Positions 16,657 to 46,801 of a stretch of DNA of 64,000 nt are shown piece after piece. The stretch is from an uncultured delta proteobacterium (GTDB lineage: Bacteria; Myxococcota_A; Polyangia; Polyangiales; Polyangiaceae). The DNA lies in the NCBI GenBank assembly GCA_963782055.1, contig CAWAIF010000003.1, positions 1,696,001-1,760,000 of the forward strand, given 5' to 3'. Position 1 is the stretch's first letter, and each line of letters begins with the position of its first letter. The notes beneath the pieces are model-generated. The model did no database searches. It was not told where the DNA came from and saw only the letters and a program-made list of their open reading frames with translations. The position numbers were made by a program, and so were the translations under genes.

Positions 16657-16672
16657 CGCGGTGCGCGTGGCG

Positions 16673-16698
16673 CGTGCTCCCGCTCATGCTCGCGTGCT
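16673..16698 (+). repeat. 26-bp dispersed repeat, copy 1
   Basis: CGTGCTCCCGCTCATGCTCGCGTGCT; 25/26 identical to the reverse complement of 54042-54067. Confidence 0.75.
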
Positions 16699-16764
16699 CG
16701 GCCGCGACGGGAGTGCACGATGGCGACGAGCTCGCGGCCTGCGCGCGCTGCGCGTGAGCGGTCC

Positions 16765-16841
16765 GCGCGCGCCTCCTCCCCCGGCCCATCGCTCGCTCGC
16801 GCTCGCTCGGGCGGGGAGGATGGTCTGGGCGCTGGTGGCGG
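16765..16841 (+). repeat. ~85-bp REP-like hairpin element, copy A
   Basis: TCCTCCCCCGGCCCATCGCTCGCTCGCGCTCGCTCGGGCGGGGAGGATGGTC..GCGCTGGTGGCGG matches 24989-25075 and the reverse complement of 29407-29491. Confidence 0.9.
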
Positions 16842-16922
16842 TCGCCCCGAAGTGCGCGAGCGGGATGCCGCCGAGGCGCCGTCGGTGCTACCGGCGGAGA
16901 CGGGGTGCGCCGGCCGCGCGGG

Positions 16923-18862: not shown

Positions 18863-19161
18863 GATCCTCCTCGCCCCCATGGACACTCTACGCGCTGGAG
18901 CATCCGCGGAGATGCTGCGCTCCGGCTCGCCGGAGCATGGGAAGGCGTAGCGCGATCGGGCGGGGAAACCGTGACGGCTCGCATCTCATGCGAAGTGGCG
19001 GTCCGCTCTCACTGGAAGCACCGACCCGGTGGGTCGGCTGCGCGTGGGGGCGGCACCCCGACTCCGGAGCGCGAGACACCTCCTTCCCGTAGATGCGGCT
19101 GAATCGGTACGCGTCGCGTCCGTCCAACGTTCGGGCGCCGTGTATCGACAAGGAGTGCCTC

Positions 19162-19896
19162 ATGTTCGGGAAATCCGTGGTGGTCGGCTCGCTCGCCGTG
19201 GTGTTCACCGTCAGCCTCGCGGCGACGAGCAGCAGCGCCGTGTCCGCGTGCAAGGCGGGGGAGGAGGACCTCGGCGGAGGCAAGTGCGCGCCCGCCTGTC
19301 CGGCGGGGACGGTGCGGCAGAAGCAGCCGCCGTTCCGGTGCCTGGGGCCCGCCAGCCGGTGCAAGGCGGGGGAGGAGGACCTCGGTGGCGGCAAGTGCGC
19401 GCCCGCCTGTCCTGCGGGGACGGTGCGGCAGAAGCAGCCGCCGTTCCGGTGCCTGGGGCCCGCCAGCCGGTGCAAGGCGGGGGAGGAGGACCTCGGCGGC
19501 GGCAAGTGCGCGCCCGCCTGTCCGGCGGGGACGGTGCGGCAGAAGCAGCCGCCGTTCCGGTGCCTGGGGCCCGCCAGCCGGTGCAAGGTGGGGGAGGAGG
19601 ACCTCGGCGGCGGCAAGTGCGCGCCCGCCTGTCCTGCGGGGACGGTGCGGCAGAAGCAGCCGCCGTTCCGGTGCCTGGGGCCCGCCAGCCGGTGCAAGGT
19701 GGGGGAGGAGGACCTCGGCGGCGGCAAGTGCGCGCCCGCCTGTCCTGCGGGGACGGTGCGGCAGAAGCAGCCGCCGTTCCGGTGCCTGGCGCCCGTCAAC
19801 CGGTGCAGGGCGGGCGAGGAGCCTGTCGGCGACAGGTGCATGCCCCGCTGCCCCAAGGGCCAGACGCGCAAGCAAGACGGCGGCTGCGGGCCGTAG
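19162..19896 (+). CDS. Secreted Cys-rich tandem-repeat protein
   Basis: AAGGAG RBS, signal peptide, five near-identical 37-aa units CKAGEEDLGGGKCAPACPAGTVRQKQPPFRCLGPASR plus a degenerate sixth. Confidence 0.8.
   Translation: MFGKSVVVGSLAVVFTVSLAATSSSAVSACKAGEEDLGGGKCAPACPAGTVRQKQPPFRCLGPASRCKAGEEDLGGGKCAPACPAGTVRQKQPPFRCLGPASRCKAGEEDLGGGKCAPACPAGTVRQKQPPFRCLGPASRCKVGEEDLGGGKCAPACPAGTVRQKQPPFRCLGPASRCKVGEEDLGGGKCAPACPAGTVRQKQPPFRCLAPVNRCRAGEEPVGDRCMPRCPKGQTRKQDGGCGP
19249..19803 (+). repeat. Coding tandem repeat, 5 x 111 bp
   Basis: Units start at 19249, 19360, 19471, 19582, 19693 and are nearly identical at DNA level. Confidence 0.95.
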
Positions 19897-20010
19897 TCCC
19901 ACGCGTGAGCGCCACCAGCACCTGGGCCTGGTCGCGCGGGACATCGCCGGGGCCCACCAGCACGGCGACCTCCACGACGTGGAGCCAGCCGTCCTGGCCG
20001 GGAGGCGCCG

Positions 20011-24207: not shown

Positions 24208-24912
24208 TCACTTCCCGATCATCGCGCTCAGCCGCTCGTGCACCACGCGCGCCTCCGGCCCCAGCAGGATCCCCATCGGTGGCGCGGTGACCCCTCCAGG
24301 CGCCAGCGACTTCTCGCGGACAAGGCAGGGGTAGCGGAAGGCGATGAAGCTCGCGTCCTCGTCCTGGCTGATGATGACGAGCGTCTCGACCCGCTGGCCC
24401 CCGGGGACGACGGCCTCGCGGAGGCGGAGGTTGCGGTCGAGCGCGATGGCGACCCGCTCGCCCGGCATCTCGAGGACGAGCTCCTGGGCGTCGAGCACCA
24501 GCTGCCCGACGCGCGCCAGCCGCTGCACCAGCGGGATGGAGGCCATGATGGCGACGGACGACAGCACGATGACGCCGACCACGACCGCGAGCGCGTGCTC
24601 TCGCGTCTGGTCGAGCAGGATCGCGGGCACCACAATCAGCGCGGGCGGCAGCAGCACCAGGGGCAGCGCGATGCCCACGCCCCGCAGCACCGAGACGACA
24701 GGGATCTCCACCCGTTCCGCCTGCCGCAGGGCCTCCCGCCGCCGCAGCACCTGGCGCCTCAGGTGGACGCTCCACCCCATCATGCCGGCCGTGACGGCGA
24801 GCACCGCCACGACGATCCACACCGCCGGGTCCACCCTGGGCGTGTACTCCACCGGCACCGGCCGGGCAAGCGGGGGGGGAGGGGGCCCCGCCTGCCGCGG
24901 GCTCGGGCCCAT
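24208..24912 (-). CDS. Hypothetical membrane protein (start uncertain)
   Basis: Three TM segments followed by a soluble domain. Confidence 0.6.
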   Translation of the reverse strand: MGPSPRQAGPPPPPLARPVPVEYTPRVDPAVWIVVAVLAVTAGMMGWSVHLRRQVLRRREALRQAERVEIPVVSVLRGVGIALPLVLLPPALIVVPAILLDQTREHALAVVVGVIVLSSVAIMASIPLVQRLARVGQLVLDAQELVLEMPGERVAIALDRNLRLREAVVPGGQRVETLVIISQDEDASFIAFRYPCLVREKSLAPGGVTAPPMGILLGPEARVVHERLSAMIGK

Positions 24913-24988
24913 GCTCCCTCGCGCGGGTGCCGACGTGGTGCACGAGAGGTCGGACGTCGGCCCCCACGCGAGGTTGCGCGTGGGCCCT

Positions 24989-25075
24989 GCGCGCGCGGCT
25001 CCTCCCCCGGCCCATCGCTCGCTTCGCTCGCTCGGGCGGGGAGGATGGTCGCGGCGCTGGTGGCGGGCTGTGGAC
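24989..25075 (+). repeat. ~85-bp REP-like hairpin element, copy B
   Basis: GCGCGCGGCTCCTCCCCCGGCCCATCGCTCGCTTCGCTCGCTCGGGCGGGGAGGATGGTCGCGGCGCTGGTGGCGGGCTGTGGAC. Confidence 0.92.
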
Positions 25076-25104
25076 GCCACATGGTCGTGATATCTCTCGA
25101 CGAG

Positions 25105-25290
25105 ATGCGCCACATCGTGTTCGCGCTCGTCGTCGCCGCAGCAGCCGTGGTCACGCTGGCCCCCTCCGCTCCCGGGGTGCGCGCGCCCGGGCGCCGCGGG
25201 TGCTGCTCGCACCATCACGGCGTTTGCGGGTGCTCGTCGGGGCGCGCTGTCTGCTGCGACAAGACCCTCAGCCCGACGTGCGGATGCTGA
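25105..25290 (+). CDS. Small secreted Cys/His-rich peptide
   Basis: Signal peptide + RRGCCSHHHGVCGCSSGRAVCCDKTLSPTCGC (8 Cys in 30 aa). Confidence 0.75.
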   Translation: MRHIVFALVVAAAAVVTLAPSAPGVRAPGRRGCCSHHHGVCGCSSGRAVCCDKTLSPTCGC

Positions 25291-25430
25291 GGACGCTCGC
25301 CGACCGCGCGCTCTCCCCGCCCCGTGCCTCCTTTACTCCGCGCCAGGTGTCCGGGGATCGCCCGCGGGTCGGTGGTGGGCACGCATGCGCCGACAGAGCC
25401 CACGGGTAGCTCCGCCCGGAGGGGGTCACG

Positions 25431-25589
25431 TCACCGCTTGCGCAGCGCCGCGCGGAGCATCCGGACCGCCGCGGTCTGCGTCCGGACCTCTATGCACCTG
25501 GCGATCAGATCCGGATCCAGTTTGGGCACGAGCTTGCTGCGCCGGGCCGCGTATCGGTCGCGGTGGAGCACGTGAAACCCGTATAGCAT
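25431..25589 (-). CDS. Small hypothetical protein
   Basis: 52-aa ORF MLYGFHVLHRDRY..; weak support. Confidence 0.25.
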   Translation of the reverse strand: MLYGFHVLHRDRYAARRSKLVPKLDPDLIARCIEVRTQTAAVRMLRAALRKR

Positions 25590-25797
25590 GATCTTGCGGT
25601 GGCCACGTCGGCGCCGGGGTGCGGCTCCGGGCGGGACACCAGCCACAAAAGCCCTCCCGCCTCCTTCTTTTGGTGCCGCCGGTTTTAATGCGGCTGGGGG
25701 CACAACCGACTGAAGCGCGCGGGAGCCCGTTTAGACCGCCAGAAGTGCCGAGCCGGCCACCGCGTTGGACGAGGCCACCGCGGAGGATCGGATACGC

Positions 25798-26877
25798 TCA
25801 CTTGTCCTTGCCGCCGAGCGACTTCAGCACCTCGATGATGCGCGTCGGGCTGCCCTCGTCCTCTCCGGAGCCAGCGTAGCCACTCGGCGGGGGCGTGAAG
25901 ATGCAGCGCGCCGACTCCAGCAGGATCGCCTGCTTCGCGGCTGCGTCATCCGTCGACGCGGCAAAGGTCTCGTAGGTGTGCAGGGCGTTCGCCCGGTGCT
26001 CGTTCATCACCGCGATGTGGCGGTGCGATCGGTGGTTCCGGGTGCACCACACGAGGAAGTAGAACAGGACGAGGATCGACCCCAGGCGCACGAGCACGTA
26101 GTGGGCGATGTCGCCATTCTTCGCGCTGGGATCCAACGGGTAGATGATGATGGCGACGGTCAGGAAGACGGCGATGGCCACACCGACGAAGATCGACGCG
26201 GCCAACCACTTCCCCGCCGCCTTATTGCTGTCCGTGACGGCCGTCCGAAAGTCCCCCTCGTGCGCCGCAACGCCGGTCTTGGCTGCTCCAGCGCGCGCCG
26301 CGACCGCGATCCCCTCGATCTCCCTGAGCTTCTCCTCTGCGGACTTGTTGACCGCCTCGGCGCCATCGTTCGCGTTCTTCTCCGCGGCCTTCATGACTTC
26401 GTCGACCGCCCTCGCCGCCTCTTCTGCGCGCCTCTTGGCGTCCTCCGCTGCAGTGGCTGCCTCCTGCGCACGTTCGTCCGGGGGCAGCAGCGCGAGGATG
26501 TTCGCAAGCGCCGGGCCGACACTCCCCAGCGCGGCGTCCAGGTTGATCATGTACTGCGGGCGGCCGGCCAGCTGCTGTGGCGTGGCTGGGTTGAACGTCG
26601 TCAGCTGCCCGAGTGTATTCTCAAGTGTGGATGTGGAGTTGATCAGCGGAGTCAGAATCTGCATCGGGACGAAGCCGGGGTGCGTTCCGATGCGGTCTAC
26701 GATGCTCTGGAGCCGCGTGCCGAGTACCTTTACCGCGGAGAGCGTGGGGAGTGCATCAGTGAAGCCCAGGTCGCCGAGGCTCTCCTTCCGGGTGGCCACG
26801 ACCGGGTCGAGCCTGGCCCACGCGTCCGCGCGAGACTCGATCTTCTTGAGCGCCGCGTTCCACTCTTCGTTGGCCAT
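25798..26877 (-). CDS. Hypothetical coiled-coil protein with two C-terminal TM helices
   Basis: 359-aa ORF, Ala/Glu/Lys heptads, 2 TM, RNHRSHRHIAVMNEHRANALHTY segment; atypical codon usage. Confidence 0.8.
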   Translation of the reverse strand: MANEEWNAALKKIESRADAWARLDPVVATRKESLGDLGFTDALPTLSAVKVLGTRLQSIVDRIGTHPGFVPMQILTPLINSTSTLENTLGQLTTFNPATPQQLAGRPQYMINLDAALGSVGPALANILALLPPDERAQEAATAAEDAKRRAEEAARAVDEVMKAAEKNANDGAEAVNKSAEEKLREIEGIAVAARAGAAKTGVAAHEGDFRTAVTDSNKAAGKWLAASIFVGVAIAVFLTVAIIIYPLDPSAKNGDIAHYVLVRLGSILVLFYFLVWCTRNHRSHRHIAVMNEHRANALHTYETFAASTDDAAAKQAILLESARCIFTPPPSGYAGSGEDEGSPTRIIEVLKSLGGKDK

Positions 26878-27256
26878 CCCCCAGATCTAGCCGATCAAAT
26901 AACTAATCCACAAGTGATCACTTCTCCACCAGCGGTCGGAGGAACGGAGGAACGCGTAGACCGATTGGAGGGCGGAGTGGCTTGCCGCGCGGTCGGCGTG
27001 GAGCGTCGCTATCGCGACAAGATGAGTTGACGGTGCTTCGGCGAACGACGCCGCGAGTGCTACGACGTGCGCCATGTGGCTTCCGCCCGGCACGTCGTGC
27101 CGCCGAAGGAATACCCAACGCCGGCCCCCAACTCCGCCTGAGCTCCTTCACGGCGGCCAAGGCGGAAGAATCCGCAACACGTCTCGCTCAACTTTCTTAC
27201 GGAAGCACGGCGCTCGACAAGACGAGCTTCGCGTGTGAACCTTGGAACTGCCGACG

Positions 27257-28045
27257 ATGCCGACAAAGATCGAATGGACCGACGAAACGTGGAACCCTGT
27301 GACGGGTTGCGTAAAGATCTCGCCAGGCTGCAAGCACTGCTACGCCGAGAAGTTCGCCGAGCGTTGGCGCGGCGTCGTGCTCCCGAATCGGAGGCTTCAC
27401 GTCTTCCACGACGGCTTCGATCCGACATTGCGACCTGACCGGGTGAAGCAGCCGCTCACGTGGAAGGCGCCGCGGATGGTCTTCGTCAACAGCATGAGTG
27501 ACCTGTTCGGCGAGTTCGTGCCGGACGCCTTCCTCACATCGGTCTTCGACGTCATGCGGCGCACGCCGCAGCACACGTACCAGATCCTCACGAAGCGGGC
27601 GGAGCGCCTGGAGGAGTGGACGCGTCGAGCACCATGGTTGTCGCTCATGCCTCACATCTGGCTCGGCGTCTCCGTGGAAGACCGGAAGTACGGCGTTCCA
27701 CGGATCGAGCACCTCCGGCGAGCGGTCGCCGGAACGCGCTTCCTGTCCATTGAGCCGCTGCTCGCCGATGTCGGGATGCTCGATCTCCGGCAGATCGACT
27801 GGGTCATCGTCGGGGGAGAGAGCGGCCCCCGCGCGCGGCCGATGCAACAGGCCTGGGTGCAGAGCGTCCGCGACCAGTGCGTTACGGCGGGCGTTGCGTT
27901 CTTCTTCAAGCAATGGGGCGGCGTGCAGAAACACCGGACCGGCCGCGTGCTCGAAGGCCGCACGTGGGACGAGTTCCCGACGCGGGGGCGGGCTGATGGC
28001 GGAATGCAGAAACAGGACCACCGGCAACTGCACGCTCGCGCGTGA
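27257..28045 (+). CDS. DUF5131 / phage Gp37-Gp68 family protein (three-Cys, radical-SAM-like)
   Basis: TKIEWTDETWNPVTGCVKISPGCKHCYAE, FVNSMSDLF, HTYQILTKR, FLSIEPLL, IDWVIVGGESG, FFFKQWGG. Confidence 0.95.
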   Translation: MPTKIEWTDETWNPVTGCVKISPGCKHCYAEKFAERWRGVVLPNRRLHVFHDGFDPTLRPDRVKQPLTWKAPRMVFVNSMSDLFGEFVPDAFLTSVFDVMRRTPQHTYQILTKRAERLEEWTRRAPWLSLMPHIWLGVSVEDRKYGVPRIEHLRRAVAGTRFLSIEPLLADVGMLDLRQIDWVIVGGESGPRARPMQQAWVQSVRDQCVTAGVAFFFKQWGGVQKHRTGRVLEGRTWDEFPTRGRADGGMQKQDHRQLHARA

Positions 28046-28835
28046 GGGCAACCTGCCCGTTCAGTGTGTCGGGGAGTGGGCGAAGGAGAAGCACGACTTC
28101 ATCCGCCGCTACATCGCCGCAACCGGAGGCCCACGTAAGAAGTACGCGTCCAAGGGCACGGGCGGGCTCTGCTACGTCGACCTCTTCGCTGGTCCCGGCC
28201 GCGCATACATTCCGAAGACCAAGGAGTTCATCGATGGCAGTCCCCTCATTGCGGCAGCCGCGCCCATCGAGCGATACACGTCGCTCGTGCTTTGCGATCT
28301 CGTCGACGAGAATATTGAGGCGCTCCGCATGCGCATGGCTGGCACCACAGGAATCCACTTCGTGCCAGGTGACTGCAACGAGATGATTGAGGCCGTCACG
28401 ACCCACATCCCGAAGCATGCCTTGAGCCTTGCCGTGGTCGATCCATTCGGCGCGAGCGCCCTCGATTTCGCGACGGTCCGGCGCCTCGCTCAGTTCGACC
28501 GCATGGACCTCATCGTCCACTTCCCGACGATGGGCATGAAACGCAACTTCGCCAAGCCCGACTACGACAAGAAGATCGATCGCTTCCTCGGAACGACGTT
28601 GTGGCGGGCTGACGTCCGCGAGCCGGAACACGTCGTGAAGCTGATCCCTTACATGAAGAGGCAGCTCGTGCAGCTCGGCTACACCGAGGACGACGAGGTC
28701 CGGGAGATAGAAGTGAAGAACGACCAGCGCGGAGTCCTCTACCATCTGTTCTTCGCGTCGAAGAGCCCTCTCGGGAACAGGATCTGGAAGTCGATCACGA
28801 AGACAACCGCGACCGGGCAGCGGGAGATGTTCTAG
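27996..28835 (+). CDS. tcmP: Three-Cys-motif partner protein (TcmP; methyltransferase-like fold)
   Basis: VGEWAKEKH, YVDLFAGPG, GSPLIA, GDCNE, VVDPFG, LYHLFFASKSPLG..IW; directly downstream of DUF5131. Confidence 0.88.
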   Translation: MAECRNRTTGNCTLAREGNLPVQCVGEWAKEKHDFIRRYIAATGGPRKKYASKGTGGLCYVDLFAGPGRAYIPKTKEFIDGSPLIAAAAPIERYTSLVLCDLVDENIEALRMRMAGTTGIHFVPGDCNEMIEAVTTHIPKHALSLAVVDPFGASALDFATVRRLAQFDRMDLIVHFPTMGMKRNFAKPDYDKKIDRFLGTTLWRADVREPEHVVKLIPYMKRQLVQLGYTEDDEVREIEVKNDQRGVLYHLFFASKSPLGNRIWKSITKTTATGQREMF

Positions 28836-28867
28836 CCCCCACCCATCGTCGAGGGTCCGTCGCTCGC

Positions 28868-29245
28868 TCACCTCCCACCCCGCAGCGCCGCCCTCACCAT
28901 CGCCAGCGCCCGCTTCACGTTCCCCTCCACCACCCCCGCCTCGATCCTGAGCACCCGAAACCCCAGCCCCTCGATCACCGCCTGCCGCGCCGCATCCGCC
29001 TCCGCGTGCCCCGCCGCCCCGTGGATCCCCCCATCCACCTCCACCACCAGCCGCTCGCTCAGCGCCACGAAGTCCACGATGTACGTCCCAGCCAGCACGT
29101 GCTGCCGGCGAAACTTGACCCCCGCCACCCGCCGCCCCCGAAGCTCCCGCCACAGCAATGCCTCCGACGGCGTCGCGTCCTCCCGTCGCATCCGCCGCGC
29201 GTGATGGTGAAGGAAGAACAGAGAGGGAGCTTCGTGCGGTGCCAT
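28868..29245 (-). CDS. DUF559 / Vsr-like endonuclease domain protein
   Basis: ARRMRR..TPSEALLWRELR..GVKFRRQH..YIVDF..LVVEVDGGIH..DAARQ..GFRVLRI; GGGGAGGG RBS before ATG 29245. Confidence 0.92.
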   Translation of the reverse strand: MAPHEAPSLFFLHHHARRMRREDATPSEALLWRELRGRRVAGVKFRRQHVLAGTYIVDFVALSERLVVEVDGGIHGAAGHAEADAARQAVIEGLGFRVLRIEAGVVEGNVKRALAMVRAALRGGR

Positions 29246-29357
29246 GCCCTCCCCACAGCGACAGAAGCGTGACAGCCGCAGTGACGCCACCCACGCCCCA
29301 AGGAAGGCTGGCGCGCTTCTTTCGCCCTCAGGGCGTGGCACCGCACGAAGCTCCCTC
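29223..29357. repeat. 28-bp inverted repeat (27/28 match) with 79-bp spacer overlapping the DUF559 start
   Basis: GAGGGAGCTTCGTGCGGTGCCATGCCCT (29223-29250) vs AGGGCGTGGCACCGCACGAAGCTCCCTC (29330-29357). Confidence 0.92.
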
Positions 29358-29406
29358 GCACGTTCCCGCGCACCCTCGAGGGGAGCGCCATTGGGGGGAG
29401 GGCCTT

Positions 29407-29491
29407 GTTCACAGCCCGCCACCAGCGCGCCGAACATCCTCCCCGCCCGAGCGAGCGAAGCGAGCGATGGGCAAGGGGAGGAGCCGCGCGC
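29407..29491 (-). repeat. ~85-bp REP-like hairpin element, copy C (inverted relative to A and B)
   Basis: Minus strand GCGCGCGGCTCCTCCCCTTGCCCATCGCTCGCTTCGCTCGCTCGGGCGGGGAGGATGTTCGGCGCGCTGGTGGCGGGCTGTGAAC, immediately after the glgB stop. Confidence 0.92.
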
Positions 29492-29492
29492 G

Positions 29493-31411
29493 TCAGCGCG
29501 CGGCAGGAGGGGCCCCCCTCTTCCTCAAAAACACAGCCCCCAGCGGCGGCACCACCAGACTCACCGACATCGCCCTCCCGTGCGCCGGCACCGGCGCCGC
29601 CTCCACCGACCCCAGGTTCCCGTGCCCGCTCCCGCCCAGCTCCTTCCCGTCCGTGTTCAAGATCTCGTCCCAGCTCCCCCCGCGCGCCGCCCCGACCCGG
29701 TAGTTTTGCAGCGGCACCGGCGTGAAGTTGAGCACCACGATCAACCTGGCGCCGTCCCGCGCCACCCGCTCGTACGCGAGCACGCTGCGCTCGGTGTCGT
29801 TGGGCTCGATCCAGCGAAACCCCGCCGGATCGCAGTCCAGATCGTGGAGGCAGGGCTCCGTCTTGTAGAGCCTGTTCAGCTCCCCGACCAATAGCTGGAG
29901 CTGCCGGTGGCGCTCGTCCGCGAGCAGGTGCCAGTCCAGGCTGGCGTCGTGGTTCCACTCCCGCTCCTGGCCGAATTCGTCCCCCATGAAGAGGAGCTTC
30001 TTGCCCGGCTGCGAGAACATGTAGGCGAAGAGCAGGCGCAGGTTGGCGCGCTTCTGCCAGTCGTCGCCCGCCATCTTGCCGTACAGCGACCCCTTGCCGT
30101 GCACGACCTCGTCGTGGGAAAGCGGGAGCACGTACGCCTCGCTGAAGGCGTACAGGCCGCGCATGGTGAGGTCTCCTTGGTGGTGCTTGCGGTGGATGGG
30201 ATCGCGCCCCAGGTAGCGCAGGGTGTCGTGCATCCAGCCGAGGTCCCACTTGAAGTCGAAGCCCAGGCCCCCGTCCTCGGTGCGGCCGGTGACGCGCGGC
30301 CACGCGGTGGACTCCTCCGCGATCGTCACCACGCCCGGGCGCTCGCGGTGCACGGCGTCGTTGAGCTGCTGCAGGAACTGGACGGCGCCCAGGTTCTCGT
30401 GGCCGCCGTGGATGTTGGGGACCCACTCCCCGCCTCGCCGGCCGTAATCGAGGTAGAGCATGGAGGCGACGCCATCGACGCGCAGGCCGTCGGCGTGGAA
30501 GCGGTCGACCCAGTACATGGCGCTGGAGAGCAGGAAGCTGCGCACCTCCCCGCGGTCGTAGTTGAAGATGGCGGTCTGCCACTCGGGGTGGAAGCCCTGC
30601 CGCGGGTCGGCGTGCTCGTAGAGGTGGCTGCCGTCGAAGAAGACCAGGCCGTGCTCGTCGGTCGGGAAGTGGCCGGGGACCCAGTCCAGGATCACGCCGA
30701 TGCCCGCCTGGTGCAGGGCGTCGACGAGCGCCATGAGCTCCGCCGGATCGCCGTAGCGCGAGGTCGGGGCGAAGTAGCCTGTCGTCTCGTAGCCCCACGA
30801 TCCGTAGAAGGGATGCTCCATCACCGGCAGCAGCTCCACGTGGGTGAAGCCCAGTCGCTCGACGTACTCCACCAGCTTCGGCGCCAGCTCGGAGTAGCGC
30901 ATGAAGCGATTGCCCTCTTCGGGTACGCGCATCCAGGAGCCGAGGTGGACCTCGTAGACGCTCATGGGCGCCCCTCGGCCGGAGCGAGCGGCGCGGTCGC
31001 GCATCCACGCCTCGTCCTTCCAGGCGTACTCGGTGGCGTCGATCACCGACGCCGTCCGGGGCGAGATCTCCGCGCGGCGGGCGAAGGGATCCGCCTTGTC
31101 CACGCGATAGCCGTTCAGCCGCGAGGCGATGCGGAACTTGTAGCAGGCCCCGGGTGAGGCGCCGGGCGCGAAGCCTTCCCACACGCCGCTCGCGCCGTGC
31201 GGGACGAGGCGGGTGGCCTCGCCGTTCCAGCCGTTGAAGTCGCCCACCACGTTCACCGACTCCGCCGTGGGCGCCCAGACGGCGAACCAGGTGCCGTCCT
31301 TGCCGTCCACCGTGGCGCGGTGCGCGCCCAGCGTGTCGTAGAGGCGGGGGTGGGTGCCCTCCGCGAAGAGGTACAGGTCCACCTCCCCGAGCACCGGCGG
31401 CGCCGGCGGCA

Positions 31412-44653: not shown

Positions 44654-46801
44654 CTACAGGGTGACCCGGCGGCGTCGCACGGCGACGAGGGCGAGGCCGA
44701 GTCCGAGGAAGAGCGCCGCGCCGTCGGTGCCGCCGCCGCCCGCCGCGGAGCAGCCGCCGCCCTGGCCCGGCTGCGCCGAGCCGCCCGGCGGGTTGTTCCC
44801 GTTGCCGCCGCCACCCGGGCCGCCAGGAGGCGGCGGGTTCGCCGGGTCGACGTGCTTGACGCCCGCGTAGCGGAGCGACGCGTAGTACTTCTCCGCGCCC
44901 CAGCCCTTGGCGTCGGACCACGCCGCGCCGGGCTGCGGATCGGCGAAGCCGGTGCCGGTGGAGAGCGCGCAGGTCAGCCCGGAGGCCGCGCGGGCGCACA
45001 CGTCGTCCATGCCGTCGCCGTTGATGTCGCCGAAGCCGATGGTGGAGTCGTACTTGGGCGCGTCCCACCCGCTGGCGGTGCTCCACGCCGGCCCGTCGAA
45101 GGCGCCCGCGAAGCTGGTCCCCTTCGAGACCGCGCAGACGACGCCCTTCGACGCGCGCGCGCAGAGGTCGGCCATGCCGTCGCCGTTGACGTCGGCGGTC
45201 TGGATGGTCGTGAAGTACTGCTCGGCCGCCCAGCCGTTGCTGTCCGCCCAGGTCGGGCCCTTCACCTCGGTGACGAAGCCGGTGCCGTCGGACAGCTCGC
45301 AGAGCATGCCGGTCTTGGAGCGGCCGCACACGTCGGTCTTGCCGTCGCCGTTGACGTCGGCGTAGCGGATCGTCGTCACGTACTGCGGCGCGGCCCAGCC
45401 GCTGGCGTCGCTCCACGCCGGGCCGGTGAAGGCGCCGGGGAAGCCGTTGCCGTCGGCGAGCTTGCAGAGCACGCCGGACTTGGAGCGGCCGCAGATGTCC
45501 GCCTTGCCGTCGCCGTCCACGTCGACGAGGCGAATCGTCGAGTAGAACTGCGGCAGGTTCCAGCCGTTGGCGTCGCTCCACGTGGGGCCCGTGACGGCCG
45601 TCGGGAAGCCGTTGCCGTCGGAGAGGGCGCAGGTGATCCCCGCGGCCGCGCGGGCGCAGACGTCCGCCTTGCCGTCGCCGTTGATGTCGCCGAACTGGAT
45701 GGTCGAGTAGTACTGCTCCTTCGTCCAACCCTTGGCGTCACTCCAGTCGGGGCCGCGCACCTCCGCGCCGAAGCCCCCGCCCGTCGAGAGCTCGCACACG
45801 ATGCCCTGCTTGTCGCGGCCGCAGAGATCGCCCTTGCCGTCGCCGTTCACGTCGGCGAACTGGATGGTGTCGTAGTAGGAGGCGGCGTCCCAGCCGGCGG
45901 CGTCGCTCCACGCCGGGCCCTTGACCTCCGTCGCCGCCGCGCCGCCCTGCGAGAGCTCGCAGACGACGCCGCTCGAGCTGCGGCCGCACACGTCGCTCAC
46001 GCCGTCGCCGTCGATGTCCGCCGCCTCGCGGTGCAGCACCGTCGGGTAGACGGGGGCGGCGGTGCCGGCGAGCTTCTGCAGCGTGGCGAGCGAGCCGTTG
46101 AAGACGTCGTGATCGAGGGAGCCGCCGCCGTCGCTGTACTGCCACATGGTCCACTTGGACCAGCCGTTGGGCACCAGCGGACACGACGGGCCGTAGTCGG
46201 CGATCCAGAGCGGGTAGGCGCCGAAGCTGGTGGAGCCGACGTTGTCCTGCCAGAAATAGGGACCGGTGTAGATGATGGGGCGCTTGCCGGTACCCTTCTC
46301 CACCAGGGTGAGCCAGGTCTTCACCTTGGACGCGATGGTGGAGCCGGACTGGCCGCCTGTCGTCTCCACGTCGATCATGCAGGGCAGGTCGCCGTCGCCC
46401 AGCATGCCGCCGACCGCCTTGATCATCAGGTTGGCCTGGGTGGTGGCGTTCTGGCCGGGCTCGAAGAACTGGTAGGCGCCGCGGAGCACGCCGGCCTTCT
46501 TCATCTTGGACCAGTTGCTGGCGAACTGGCTGTCGGTGTAGTTGACGCCGTCGCCGATGCGCGCGTAGCCGAAGTCGACGCCCGCCTTCTTCTGCGCGGC
46601 CCAGTCGAAGTTGCCCTGGTAGACCGAGACGTCGCGCCCCTGGACGGCCCCGCTCGACTTGGCCCCGCAGACGGTGGACAGAGCCTCGGCGCCGGTGCCT
46701 ACATCCTCCCCGGGGGCGGAGCTGCACGCCGCGGCGAGGAGCGCGACGAGCGCGGCGAAGAGGGCGAGGCCCCGTGAGCGGGAAGGTCGGCGGCTGGGCA
46801 T
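44654..46801 (-). CDS. GH25 muramidase with FG-GAP/VCBS-like repeats and MYXO-CTERM-type tail
   Basis: DVSVYQG, GAYQFF, IDVE, LWIADY, MWQYS; repeated ADVNGDGKADVCAR; GGCSA..TM..RRRR. Confidence 0.9.
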   Translation of the reverse strand: MPSRRPSRSRGLALFAALVALLAAACSSAPGEDVGTGAEALSTVCGAKSSGAVQGRDVSVYQGNFDWAAQKKAGVDFGYARIGDGVNYTDSQFASNWSKMKKAGVLRGAYQFFEPGQNATTQANLMIKAVGGMLGDGDLPCMIDVETTGGQSGSTIASKVKTWLTLVEKGTGKRPIIYTGPYFWQDNVGSTSFGAYPLWIADYGPSCPLVPNGWSKWTMWQYSDGGGSLDHDVFNGSLATLQKLAGTAAPVYPTVLHREAADIDGDGVSDVCGRSSSGVVCELSQGGAAATEVKGPAWSDAAGWDAASYYDTIQFADVNGDGKGDLCGRDKQGIVCELSTGGGFGAEVRGPDWSDAKGWTKEQYYSTIQFGDINGDGKADVCARAAAGITCALSDGNGFPTAVTGPTWSDANGWNLPQFYSTIRLVDVDGDGKADICGRSKSGVLCKLADGNGFPGAFTGPAWSDASGWAAPQYVTTIRYADVNGDGKTDVCGRSKTGMLCELSDGTGFVTEVKGPTWADSNGWAAEQYFTTIQTADVNGDGMADLCARASKGVVCAVSKGTSFAGAFDGPAWSTASGWDAPKYDSTIGFGDINGDGMDDVCARAASGLTCALSTGTGFADPQPGAAWSDAKGWGAEKYYASLRYAGVKHVDPANPPPPGGPGGGGNGNNPPGGSAQPGQGGGCSAAGGGGTDGAALFLGLGLALVAVRRRRVTL

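Follow-up and report, generated by a model that had tools for sequence, protein, structure and literature searches.

Ends of a hairpin-ended DUF559 element family bound a 4.63-kb island in a Polyangiaceae genome

Introduction

What kind of element leaves two inward-facing repeats around a group of genes, and what part does a small nuclease gene between them play? The question is raised by a 4.63-kb island in the window, a 64,000-nt stretch (G000:C3:1696001-1760000) of the genome of an uncultured delta proteobacterium (GCA_963782055.1; 7.58 Mb, 71.6% GC, completeness 97%). A sequence-only reading had described inverted hairpin repeats around five genes, one of them for a DUF559 protein, and suggested a repeat-bounded cargo unit or a gene-capture site with DUF559 as the partner of the repeat. 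Our analysis shows that the window repeats belong to a family of hairpin-ended DUF559 elements with about 60 copies in this genome. The original observation, the DUF559 partnership and the gene-capture site were upheld, but one travelling unit, a link to Uma2 genes and the exact boundaries were not. The explanation that we prefer, with slightly better than even confidence, is that the island is a two-ended cassette whose middle was replaced stepwise, nicking by DUF559 driving both the spread of the element and a C-to-G scar in the neighbouring host gene. Below, G000 denotes the window's genome, C2 and C3 its contigs, G001-G006 other genomes and L codes fetched loci.

The window repeats are ends of a DUF559 element

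The longest inverted pair in the window has arms of 86 nt (24990-25075 and 29407-29492) that are 93% complementary, and a third copy of the repeat lies at about 16764-16850. The inverted repeats of about 85 bp reported before were real and inward-facing, but they were not the boundaries, since the shared end begins at 24885 and 29513. These are the true island ends, and the 86-nt arms lie inside a longer structured end. The relevant features are:

24885..25090, + strand: copy B, a truncated end with the fixed start, a long 5' hairpin and the 24990-25075 hairpin, and no DUF559 gene behind it
24872..24884, + strand: G-rich tract outside end B, complementary in sequence to the element's first bases
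28868..29245, - strand: intact gene for a 125-aa DUF559 Vsr-like nuclease (PF04480, E 6e-27)
29223..29357, - strand: long proximal stem (from covariation), in which the outer arm is base-paired to the DUF559 start codon and the codons next to it
29246..29513, - strand: copy C, a complete DUF559 leader with its fixed end at 29513 and the hairpin 29407-29492
29514..29800, - strand: scar in the 3' end of glgB, read from four-fold sites
16668..16850, + strand: copy A, a truncated end 11 nt behind a Uma2 gene

Copies were catalogued with a profile built on 11 leaders, which gave 70 nhmmer matches in G000 and 60 after filtering; the 10 dropped were proximal-stem self-matches or had E>1e-5. One contig-end copy was excluded, leaving 59 boundaries for analysis. 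An 87-nt query alone gave 31 blastn matches. Another 16 blastn fragments, some of them spurious, stand outside the main counts, and one of these (C3:4674608) was added for the copy-rank, subtype-pair and inward-pair analyses. In almost all copies a purine tract precedes the start at GCCCC(T/G)CC, and the 3' ends are scattered through the leader or the open reading frame (ORF). The ends are multi-hairpin structures of 170-410 nt, and the shared DUF559 leader of about 280-410 nt contains the hairpin first noticed in the window or a sister form of it. GGGGCCCC is present at both island junctions (24882 and 29509). It consists of the G-tract and the element's own start and is seen at many copies, and is thus not a target-site duplication; none was found in the filled/empty comparisons described below either, where junctions are altered and G-rich.

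There are 16 DUF559 matches in G000, at 15 loci. A fixed end lies at most 650 nt upstream in the same orientation at 13 of the 14 testable loci, against a chance of 0.0025 per locus, and the sole locus without a leader is a 5'-broken fragment. At the 15th the leader is cut by the contig end, so that 14/15 loci carry one. Leader and gene stay together throughout the genus, the covarying stems extend over the DUF559 start, and each of the six same-genus genomes (6/6) contains 7-22 DUF559 matches. DUF559 is therefore the partner of the repeat and not cargo, as copy C proved to be its leader. The expected enrichment of Uma2 genes beside the repeat did not appear (1/14 Uma2 matches adjoins a catalogued end).

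The DUF559 protein has conserved residues E28, Q48, D58, E69, D71, H75, D84 and R87, and the acidic and histidine residues are retained in 11/11 intact copies. Foldseek returned 3hrl (E 2e-7), 3r3p (E 2e-4) and 1vsr (E 0.015); the protein is predicted to fold like 3hrl, I-Bth0305I and Vsr and to be a nuclease. Its closest named homologues are labelled Polyangiaceae. The element heads nearly every DUF559 copy, and its covarying ends with their invariant mismatch are a candidate substrate for a member of this very large family. At L018 (C3:1912285-1912700) and L030 (C2:552184-552600), small hairpins of a different repeat type interrupt the DUF559 genes, one of them at the identical position in both.

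Folding of the repeats depended on the length considered. The complete structures fold more stably than shuffled sequences (whole B end z -4.0, C leader z -9.8). The 100-nt hairpin windows by themselves gave z -1.2 to -1.9 for B and C and +1.4 for the third copy, no improvement over shuffles. Of the 29 pairs of the proximal stem, compared in 30 sequences (G000 and five same-genus genomes), 20 vary on both sides and none on one side, without G-U intermediates. Slid controls collapse, while relatedness inflates the shuffle control. A C-T opposition is invariant (30/30) and a C-A opposition, T-G on the other strand, occurs in 18/30. Compensation confined to Watson-Crick pairs would suit folded DNA better than folded RNA. 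The ends gave no above-threshold Rfam match, only one sub-threshold match of 25 nt, and thus show neither an Rfam match nor the G-U-tolerant covariation of a structured RNA. By eye, a TGACA-like word is conserved in the proximal stem, with no fixed -10 word and no correct sigma-54 spacing.

Two-ended cassettes and filled sites in relatives

For comparison, 40 relatives were screened for the flank genes, six genomes belonged to the same genus, and 20 DUF559 loci were fetched from four of these six. The unit in same-genus genomes is a two-ended cassette of about 0.8-1.4 kb with one or two DUF559 genes. At five of the six loci fetched from G006, one or two DUF559 genes lie between two different inward ends separated by 0.8-1.3 kb. 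G004 has this arrangement at L070 and L071 (by motif), L073 (by self-alignment) and L069 (DUF559 genes paired tail to tail), and G001 has it at one locus, L068; the remaining fetched loci have one end or none by pattern. The G004 cassettes L070 and L073 occupy gaps that are only 1 and 3 nt wide in G000. Conversely, G000 has an 11-kb stretch enclosed by an inward pair, with bamA on one side and an Mpo1-like gene on the other; these two genes are neighbours in G002, 2 nt apart, and in G004, about 150 nt apart. The ends thus lie at synteny breaks, as had been anticipated, at these loci other than the island's.

At the island itself, the left flank gene was found in 0/40 relatives and glgB, on the right, in 21/40; neither occurs in the six same-genus genomes. 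No repeat was present within 130 nt downstream of glgB in 13 fetched relatives, and one soil read run (9% of words, sparse cover) gave no read joint across the island.

Inward-facing end pairs within 5 kb number 7 in G000 against 0.6 expected, and none of 20,000 simulations was as high, so that chance does not account for the inverted arrangement. Within 15 kb, inward pairs outnumber outward pairs 10 to 1 (p 0.006). Subtypes agree in 8/9 typed inward pairs (p 0.027), the window pair being A with A.

The island might instead be a pile-up, in which two independent one-ended insertions settled around a tolerant gap and the cargo arrived by other routes. Inward partners are seldom nearest copies, direct neighbours often are (best rank <=3 in 7/12), and B and C are unlike in their 5' module and in their scar. 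Many copies are single, several paralogue comparisons give one-ended junctions that do not continue inward, and cargo relatives occur without the repeat. Relatives, however, repeatedly pair two unlike ends at clean filled sites, so that unlike partners are to be expected, and the subtype concordance and a cargo gene common to four copies also speak against independent insertion. We regard a pile-up as rather unlikely.

Several loci deserve mention in their own right. At L073 the cassette has come between two genes that run in one direction; compared with its G000 orthologue, the downstream gene is altered in its first codons, with more C on the gene's own strand, the mirror of the scar. A gene that is convergent with ubiB in four relatives (L090-L093) sits 65 kb off in G000 (C3:6684359), where the element end at the ubiB break makes a rearrangement at the end possible. 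An element end lies behind the same host gene in two species (C3:2216546-2218065 and L007 of G004), either through an old common insertion or through reuse of the site. In G003 (L003:1-1546), an end stands immediately behind a tRNA-like sequence recognised by eye. Small repeated modules, including 23S-rRNA-IVP (PF05635) cassettes, often lie beside ends (C3:2266388-2266693 and 2575000-2576700), which suggests shared landing sites.

A one-sided G-for-C gradient in host genes

Many of the ends lie just behind a host gene. Among 47 adjacent genes, 41 are co-oriented with the end, and 41/59 boundaries lie <60 nt behind a co-oriented gene, all of them <=28 nt from its stop (median 13), as close as only 13% of random intergenic bases. 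In glgB, the final 6-7 codons together with the stop codon come from copy C. Upstream of these stops, four-fold sites have G and C fractions of 0.80/0.18 at 30-60 nt from the end, 0.73/0.23 at 60-100, 0.65/0.33 at 100-150 and 0.55/0.42 at 200-250, and reach the genome value of 0.43/0.53 by about 300 nt. The profile of all gene ends pooled is flat. In glgB, four-fold G:C counts are 17:0, 17:2 and 14:6 in successive steps of about 100 nt and 89:148 past 600 nt. The rise of C-to-T change at two-fold codons is smaller, 0.24 vs 0.10 over the last 60 nt. Shifts at the first and second codon positions are mostly restricted to these last 60 nt, as slow mutation filtered by selection would produce. The inner side of the ends has little or no G shift.

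The gradient follows the element, not the gene. In oppositely oriented genes the shift tracks the element strand in 9/11 cases (pooled z 4.2). Less than 150 nt from the end, genes of relatives that have an end give G:C 122:46 and their element-free G000 orthologues 69:103, whereas farther away the counts are 385:474 and 371:558 (13 rows for 12 genes, one counted twice); 11/12 genes go in the scar direction, two of them only marginally. Reciprocally, bamA of G000 has 19-24:1 where five orthologues are balanced, and the window glgB has 10-19:0-2 where 13 homologues are mostly balanced. The skew is larger beside more diverged copies (rho -0.46, p 0.003), and full-leader copies tend to have more of it (mean z 4.3 vs 2.9, p 0.054). 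Overall, z exceeds 3 in 24/38 element-adjacent gene ends.

A gradient of this kind could arise without the nuclease, if the element prefers G-rich gene ends or if its hairpins stall polymerase or hold R-loops that expose one strand. Hundreds of element-free patches, commoner on the sense strand, and the predominance of co-oriented neighbours speak for this idea, and a study of the BoxC/TM repeats of E. coli reports that they block polymerase in vitro and are found in variable regions (PMC4666352). Yet element-free orthologues are unskewed, skew increases beside diverged copies and, as a tendency, with a full leader, and the one-sided shift tracks the element strand even in antisense genes. We consider a nuclease-independent origin of the gradient unlikely. 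The one-sided shift in the outer host gene likely reflects repeated cutting and repair by the DUF559 nuclease. The element-free patches are often at gene 3' ends; the strongest element-free skewed gene ends have foreign-like DNA downstream in 27% of cases vs about 6%, which may mark lost element ends or other elements.

The island interior

The genes that lie in and beside the island, besides DUF559, are:

24208..24858, - strand: left host-like gene, without Pfam family; 24858 is the start given by the gene caller, and an alternative ATG at 24912 falls within the repeat
25081..25290, + strand: 69-aa Cys/His peptide; among Atlas clusters an unnamed 61-aa family comes nearest (0.92), and weak YdcA/DUF3761 leads are all below 0.9
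25798..26877, - strand: 359-aa protein, rich in alanine in its middle part and with hydrophobic segments towards the C-terminus; its Atlas features resemble DUF6161 (0.94), and a word search gave a single weak homologue
27257..28045, + strand: DUF5131 (PF07505, E 5e-98; PADLOC PDC-M41B / PDC-M30B)
27996..28835, + strand: TcmP (TIGR04474, 159.5 bits, cut-off 53; PADLOC PDC-M41A / PDC-M30A)

This gene set is as first described, and the interior is indeed richer in A/T (GC 0.647 over 25600-28850 vs 0.746 and 0.708 in the flanks). Family scans of the interior ORFs and of 12 alternative-frame ORFs found no transposase or recombinase, which agrees with the earlier reading. The cargo is 'defence-like' by the PADLOC candidate models PDC-M41 and PDC-M30 only, and we found nothing relevant in the literature on DUF5131/TcmP function. 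A stretch of about 150 nt in the island (25431-25577) has one 81% paralogue at C3:920086, adjoining a Uma2 match.

Genome-wide, the two sides of the ends differ. The codon-model score, which also drops where the simple gene caller misses genes, is 0.186 in the 2 kb inside ends, 0.305 outside and 0.309 at control gene ends. Inner DNA falls below the controls' 10th percentile at 33/59 ends, and outer DNA is normal. Plain GC has no inner/outer polarity genome-wide (29/59, p 0.98). Together with the synteny breaks at other loci, the foreign-like inner DNA marks the repeats as gene-capture sites, as had been proposed. One cargo gene has 4 copies at three sites, each behind a type-A end. At L025 (C3:5999000-6013000), two alleles of one host site (87% identity) stand in tandem with partly different cargo; both have a DUF559 element of their own, and the duplication of the end took in 150 nt of outer flank.

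Could the five genes have moved as one 4.5-kb unit with defence cargo? The matching subtype-A inward ends, the low-GC interior and the PADLOC candidate matches would suit such a strict composite, but the island interior has no second copy in G000. Moreover, in the nearest two DUF5131-TcmP copies (81-82% nt identity), which sit in other contexts, the likeness is confined to 27214-28834, and neither the ends nor the remaining genes are present. Neither DUF559 nor the leader was found beside DUF5131 at any of 80 loci (the best 80 of 562, with flanks up to 5 kb). The interior is therefore a mosaic, and travel of the five-gene block as one unit is not supported. In addition, the scar in glgB marks end C as an old resident, whereas B is unscarred. 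We judge the strict composite very improbable.

A proposed mechanism and its weight

We propose that a two-ended cassette would insert behind a host stop codon. Its long internal inverted halves would then erode, and incoming DNA would replace the middle of the cassette. Close to the fixed end, DUF559 would nick the folded single strand that is antisense to its own gene, and repair would remake this antisense strand outward over about 300 nt, repeatedly. The exposed template strand would lose cytosines by miscopying or damage bypass, and the outer flank would be trimmed as far as the stop codon of the host gene. DNA could be taken up at the variable inner end via recombination begun at the break. 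The window island probably descended from one such cassette.

If so, the footprint on host DNA predicts the cut strand and the direction of repair. If the nuclease makes the scar, a selfish element next door would influence the synonymous codons and C-terminal residues of ordinary genes such as glgB and bamA, and the scar would allow island borders in this group to be recognised. A broader reading is tentative and in our view somewhat doubtful. According to it, this is a transposase-free element in which a 125-aa Vsr-like nickase would act on folded single-stranded ends as a polar gate for foreign DNA, trim flanks and be a local C-to-G mutator over about 300 nt; it might possibly also cause the BoxC-linked instability of E. 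coli.

A number of observations weigh against the cassette explanation. The window ends B and C differ in their 5' module and rank 16 and 5 of 59 as each other's copies, and are thus not the closest; most inward partners rank 10 or worse. Folding energy picks neither strand (34/59 copies). The flank of copy B has no scar, and the left gene leans the other way (z -3.5); ubiB has no scar and FTHFS a weak one. The end at L007 of G004 is without skew (9:10) though the same gene has 20:0 in G000, and three antisense cases in relatives are flat. Conversely, one element-free glgB homologue is skewed (13:1), 155/4,821 other gene ends also have z>3, and only 27 of the 429 strand-specific synonymous G-skew peaks (|z|>=4) on C3 are at elements. 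The dN/dS among DUF559 paralogues is 0.66, a value that is uninformative because third positions are G-saturated: ten G000 ORFs have 596 G and 51 C. Most relatives' ORFs, among those listed, are not G-skewed. Cutting by DUF559 is a prediction from sequence, the sparse soil reads gave no sign of excision or circles, and 20 matches to Y2 (IS91-type) transposases in G000 could act in trans.

Comparison with known systems

Searches of a paper library without most subscription titles found no account of a DUF559-repeat element or of such a gradient. By analogy, the element would work most like Ssn/SRM and REPtrons, but its enzyme belongs to neither class. Ssn with SRM/NTS (PMC11893778) also combines a small single-domain nuclease gene beside its own hairpin repeat with scattered copies near variable genes, as found here, and its authors suggest a mobile-element origin. 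Ssn is a GIY-YIG enzyme with repeats of 20-50 nt, whereas here a Vsr-like DUF559 is joined to ends of 170-410 nt, with a start-codon stem, unlike ends, cargo and scar. The main text of that paper does not mention DUF559 or Vsr. The partner here is PF04480, and the sole PF01541 match of G000 (C3:5462643) is >100 kb from any catalogued end.

REP/REPIN-RAYT systems, REPtrons and TIRtrons (PMC3733652) share palindromic intergenic repeats, often in inverted pairs after genes, with an enzyme gene between them. The enzyme class of REPtrons differs from DUF559: G000 gave no match to the Y1 HUH transposase (PF01797), while the same search, as a control, was positive in 6/14 genomes. The GTAG/CGTC tag at the foot of a 20-40-bp palindrome is also absent: in the boundaries listed, the fixed end begins with GCCCC, and the ends are at least 170 nt. 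As in composite transposons and miniature inverted-repeat elements, there are terminal inverted repeats, but neither a target-site duplication nor a cognate transposase was found. Among 111/173 predicted genes at 20 other loci, DDE transposases beside ends gave two matches, both in separate insertion sequences.

EDxHD enzymes such as I-Bth0305I, and Vsr, have the same fold as DUF559 with matching acidic and histidine residues (E/D/H/D), and Vsr is a nicking enzyme at T:G mismatches (PMC3239194). Our gene is a 125-aa single-domain intergenic ORF that lacks a NUMOD region and an intron or intein host and is multicopy at unrelated sites, and its identity as an EDxHD homing gene is thereby ruled out.

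IS91 and ISCR elements have one fixed and one variable end and capture adjoining DNA. The present element resembles them in its fixed and variable ends; it has no HUH transposase inside, and its cassettes in relatives are two-ended. The ends might nevertheless be moved in trans by the HUH (Y2) transposases of the genome, with DUF559 as a passenger. The Y2_Tnp matches already mentioned would provide the enzyme, and the fixed start, variable end and captured DNA are reminiscent of one-ended rolling-circle transposition. What we take to be an IS91-like fragment follows two element copies. No Y2 match, however, lies within 2 kb of any catalogued end, and the genus-wide leader-DUF559 link, with stems covarying across the DUF559 start, speaks against a passenger role. 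We find mobilization in trans improbable.

BoxC/TM-ECO repeats of E. coli (PMC4666352) are likewise palindromes with G/C tracts linked to variable regions, by a mechanism described there as undefined, and their pairs always join a type A and a type B. They differ in being a 37-nt motif without a long leader. In E. coli K-12, between fabI and ycjD (L188:1706-1740), a match to the TM-ECO/BoxC consensus lies 167 nt beyond the 3' end of the DUF559 gene ycjD, and a related hairpin lies over the ycjD stop; the consensus was searched around E. coli ycjD only. The main text of the BoxC paper does not name ycjD, and the window DUF559 gene has no DNA similarity to E. coli genomes. This neighbourhood opens the idea to laboratory testing.

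Elsewhere in the window, and unrelated to the island, tandem repeats of 111 nt (19137-19942) and 165 nt (44941-46065) lie in coding frames.

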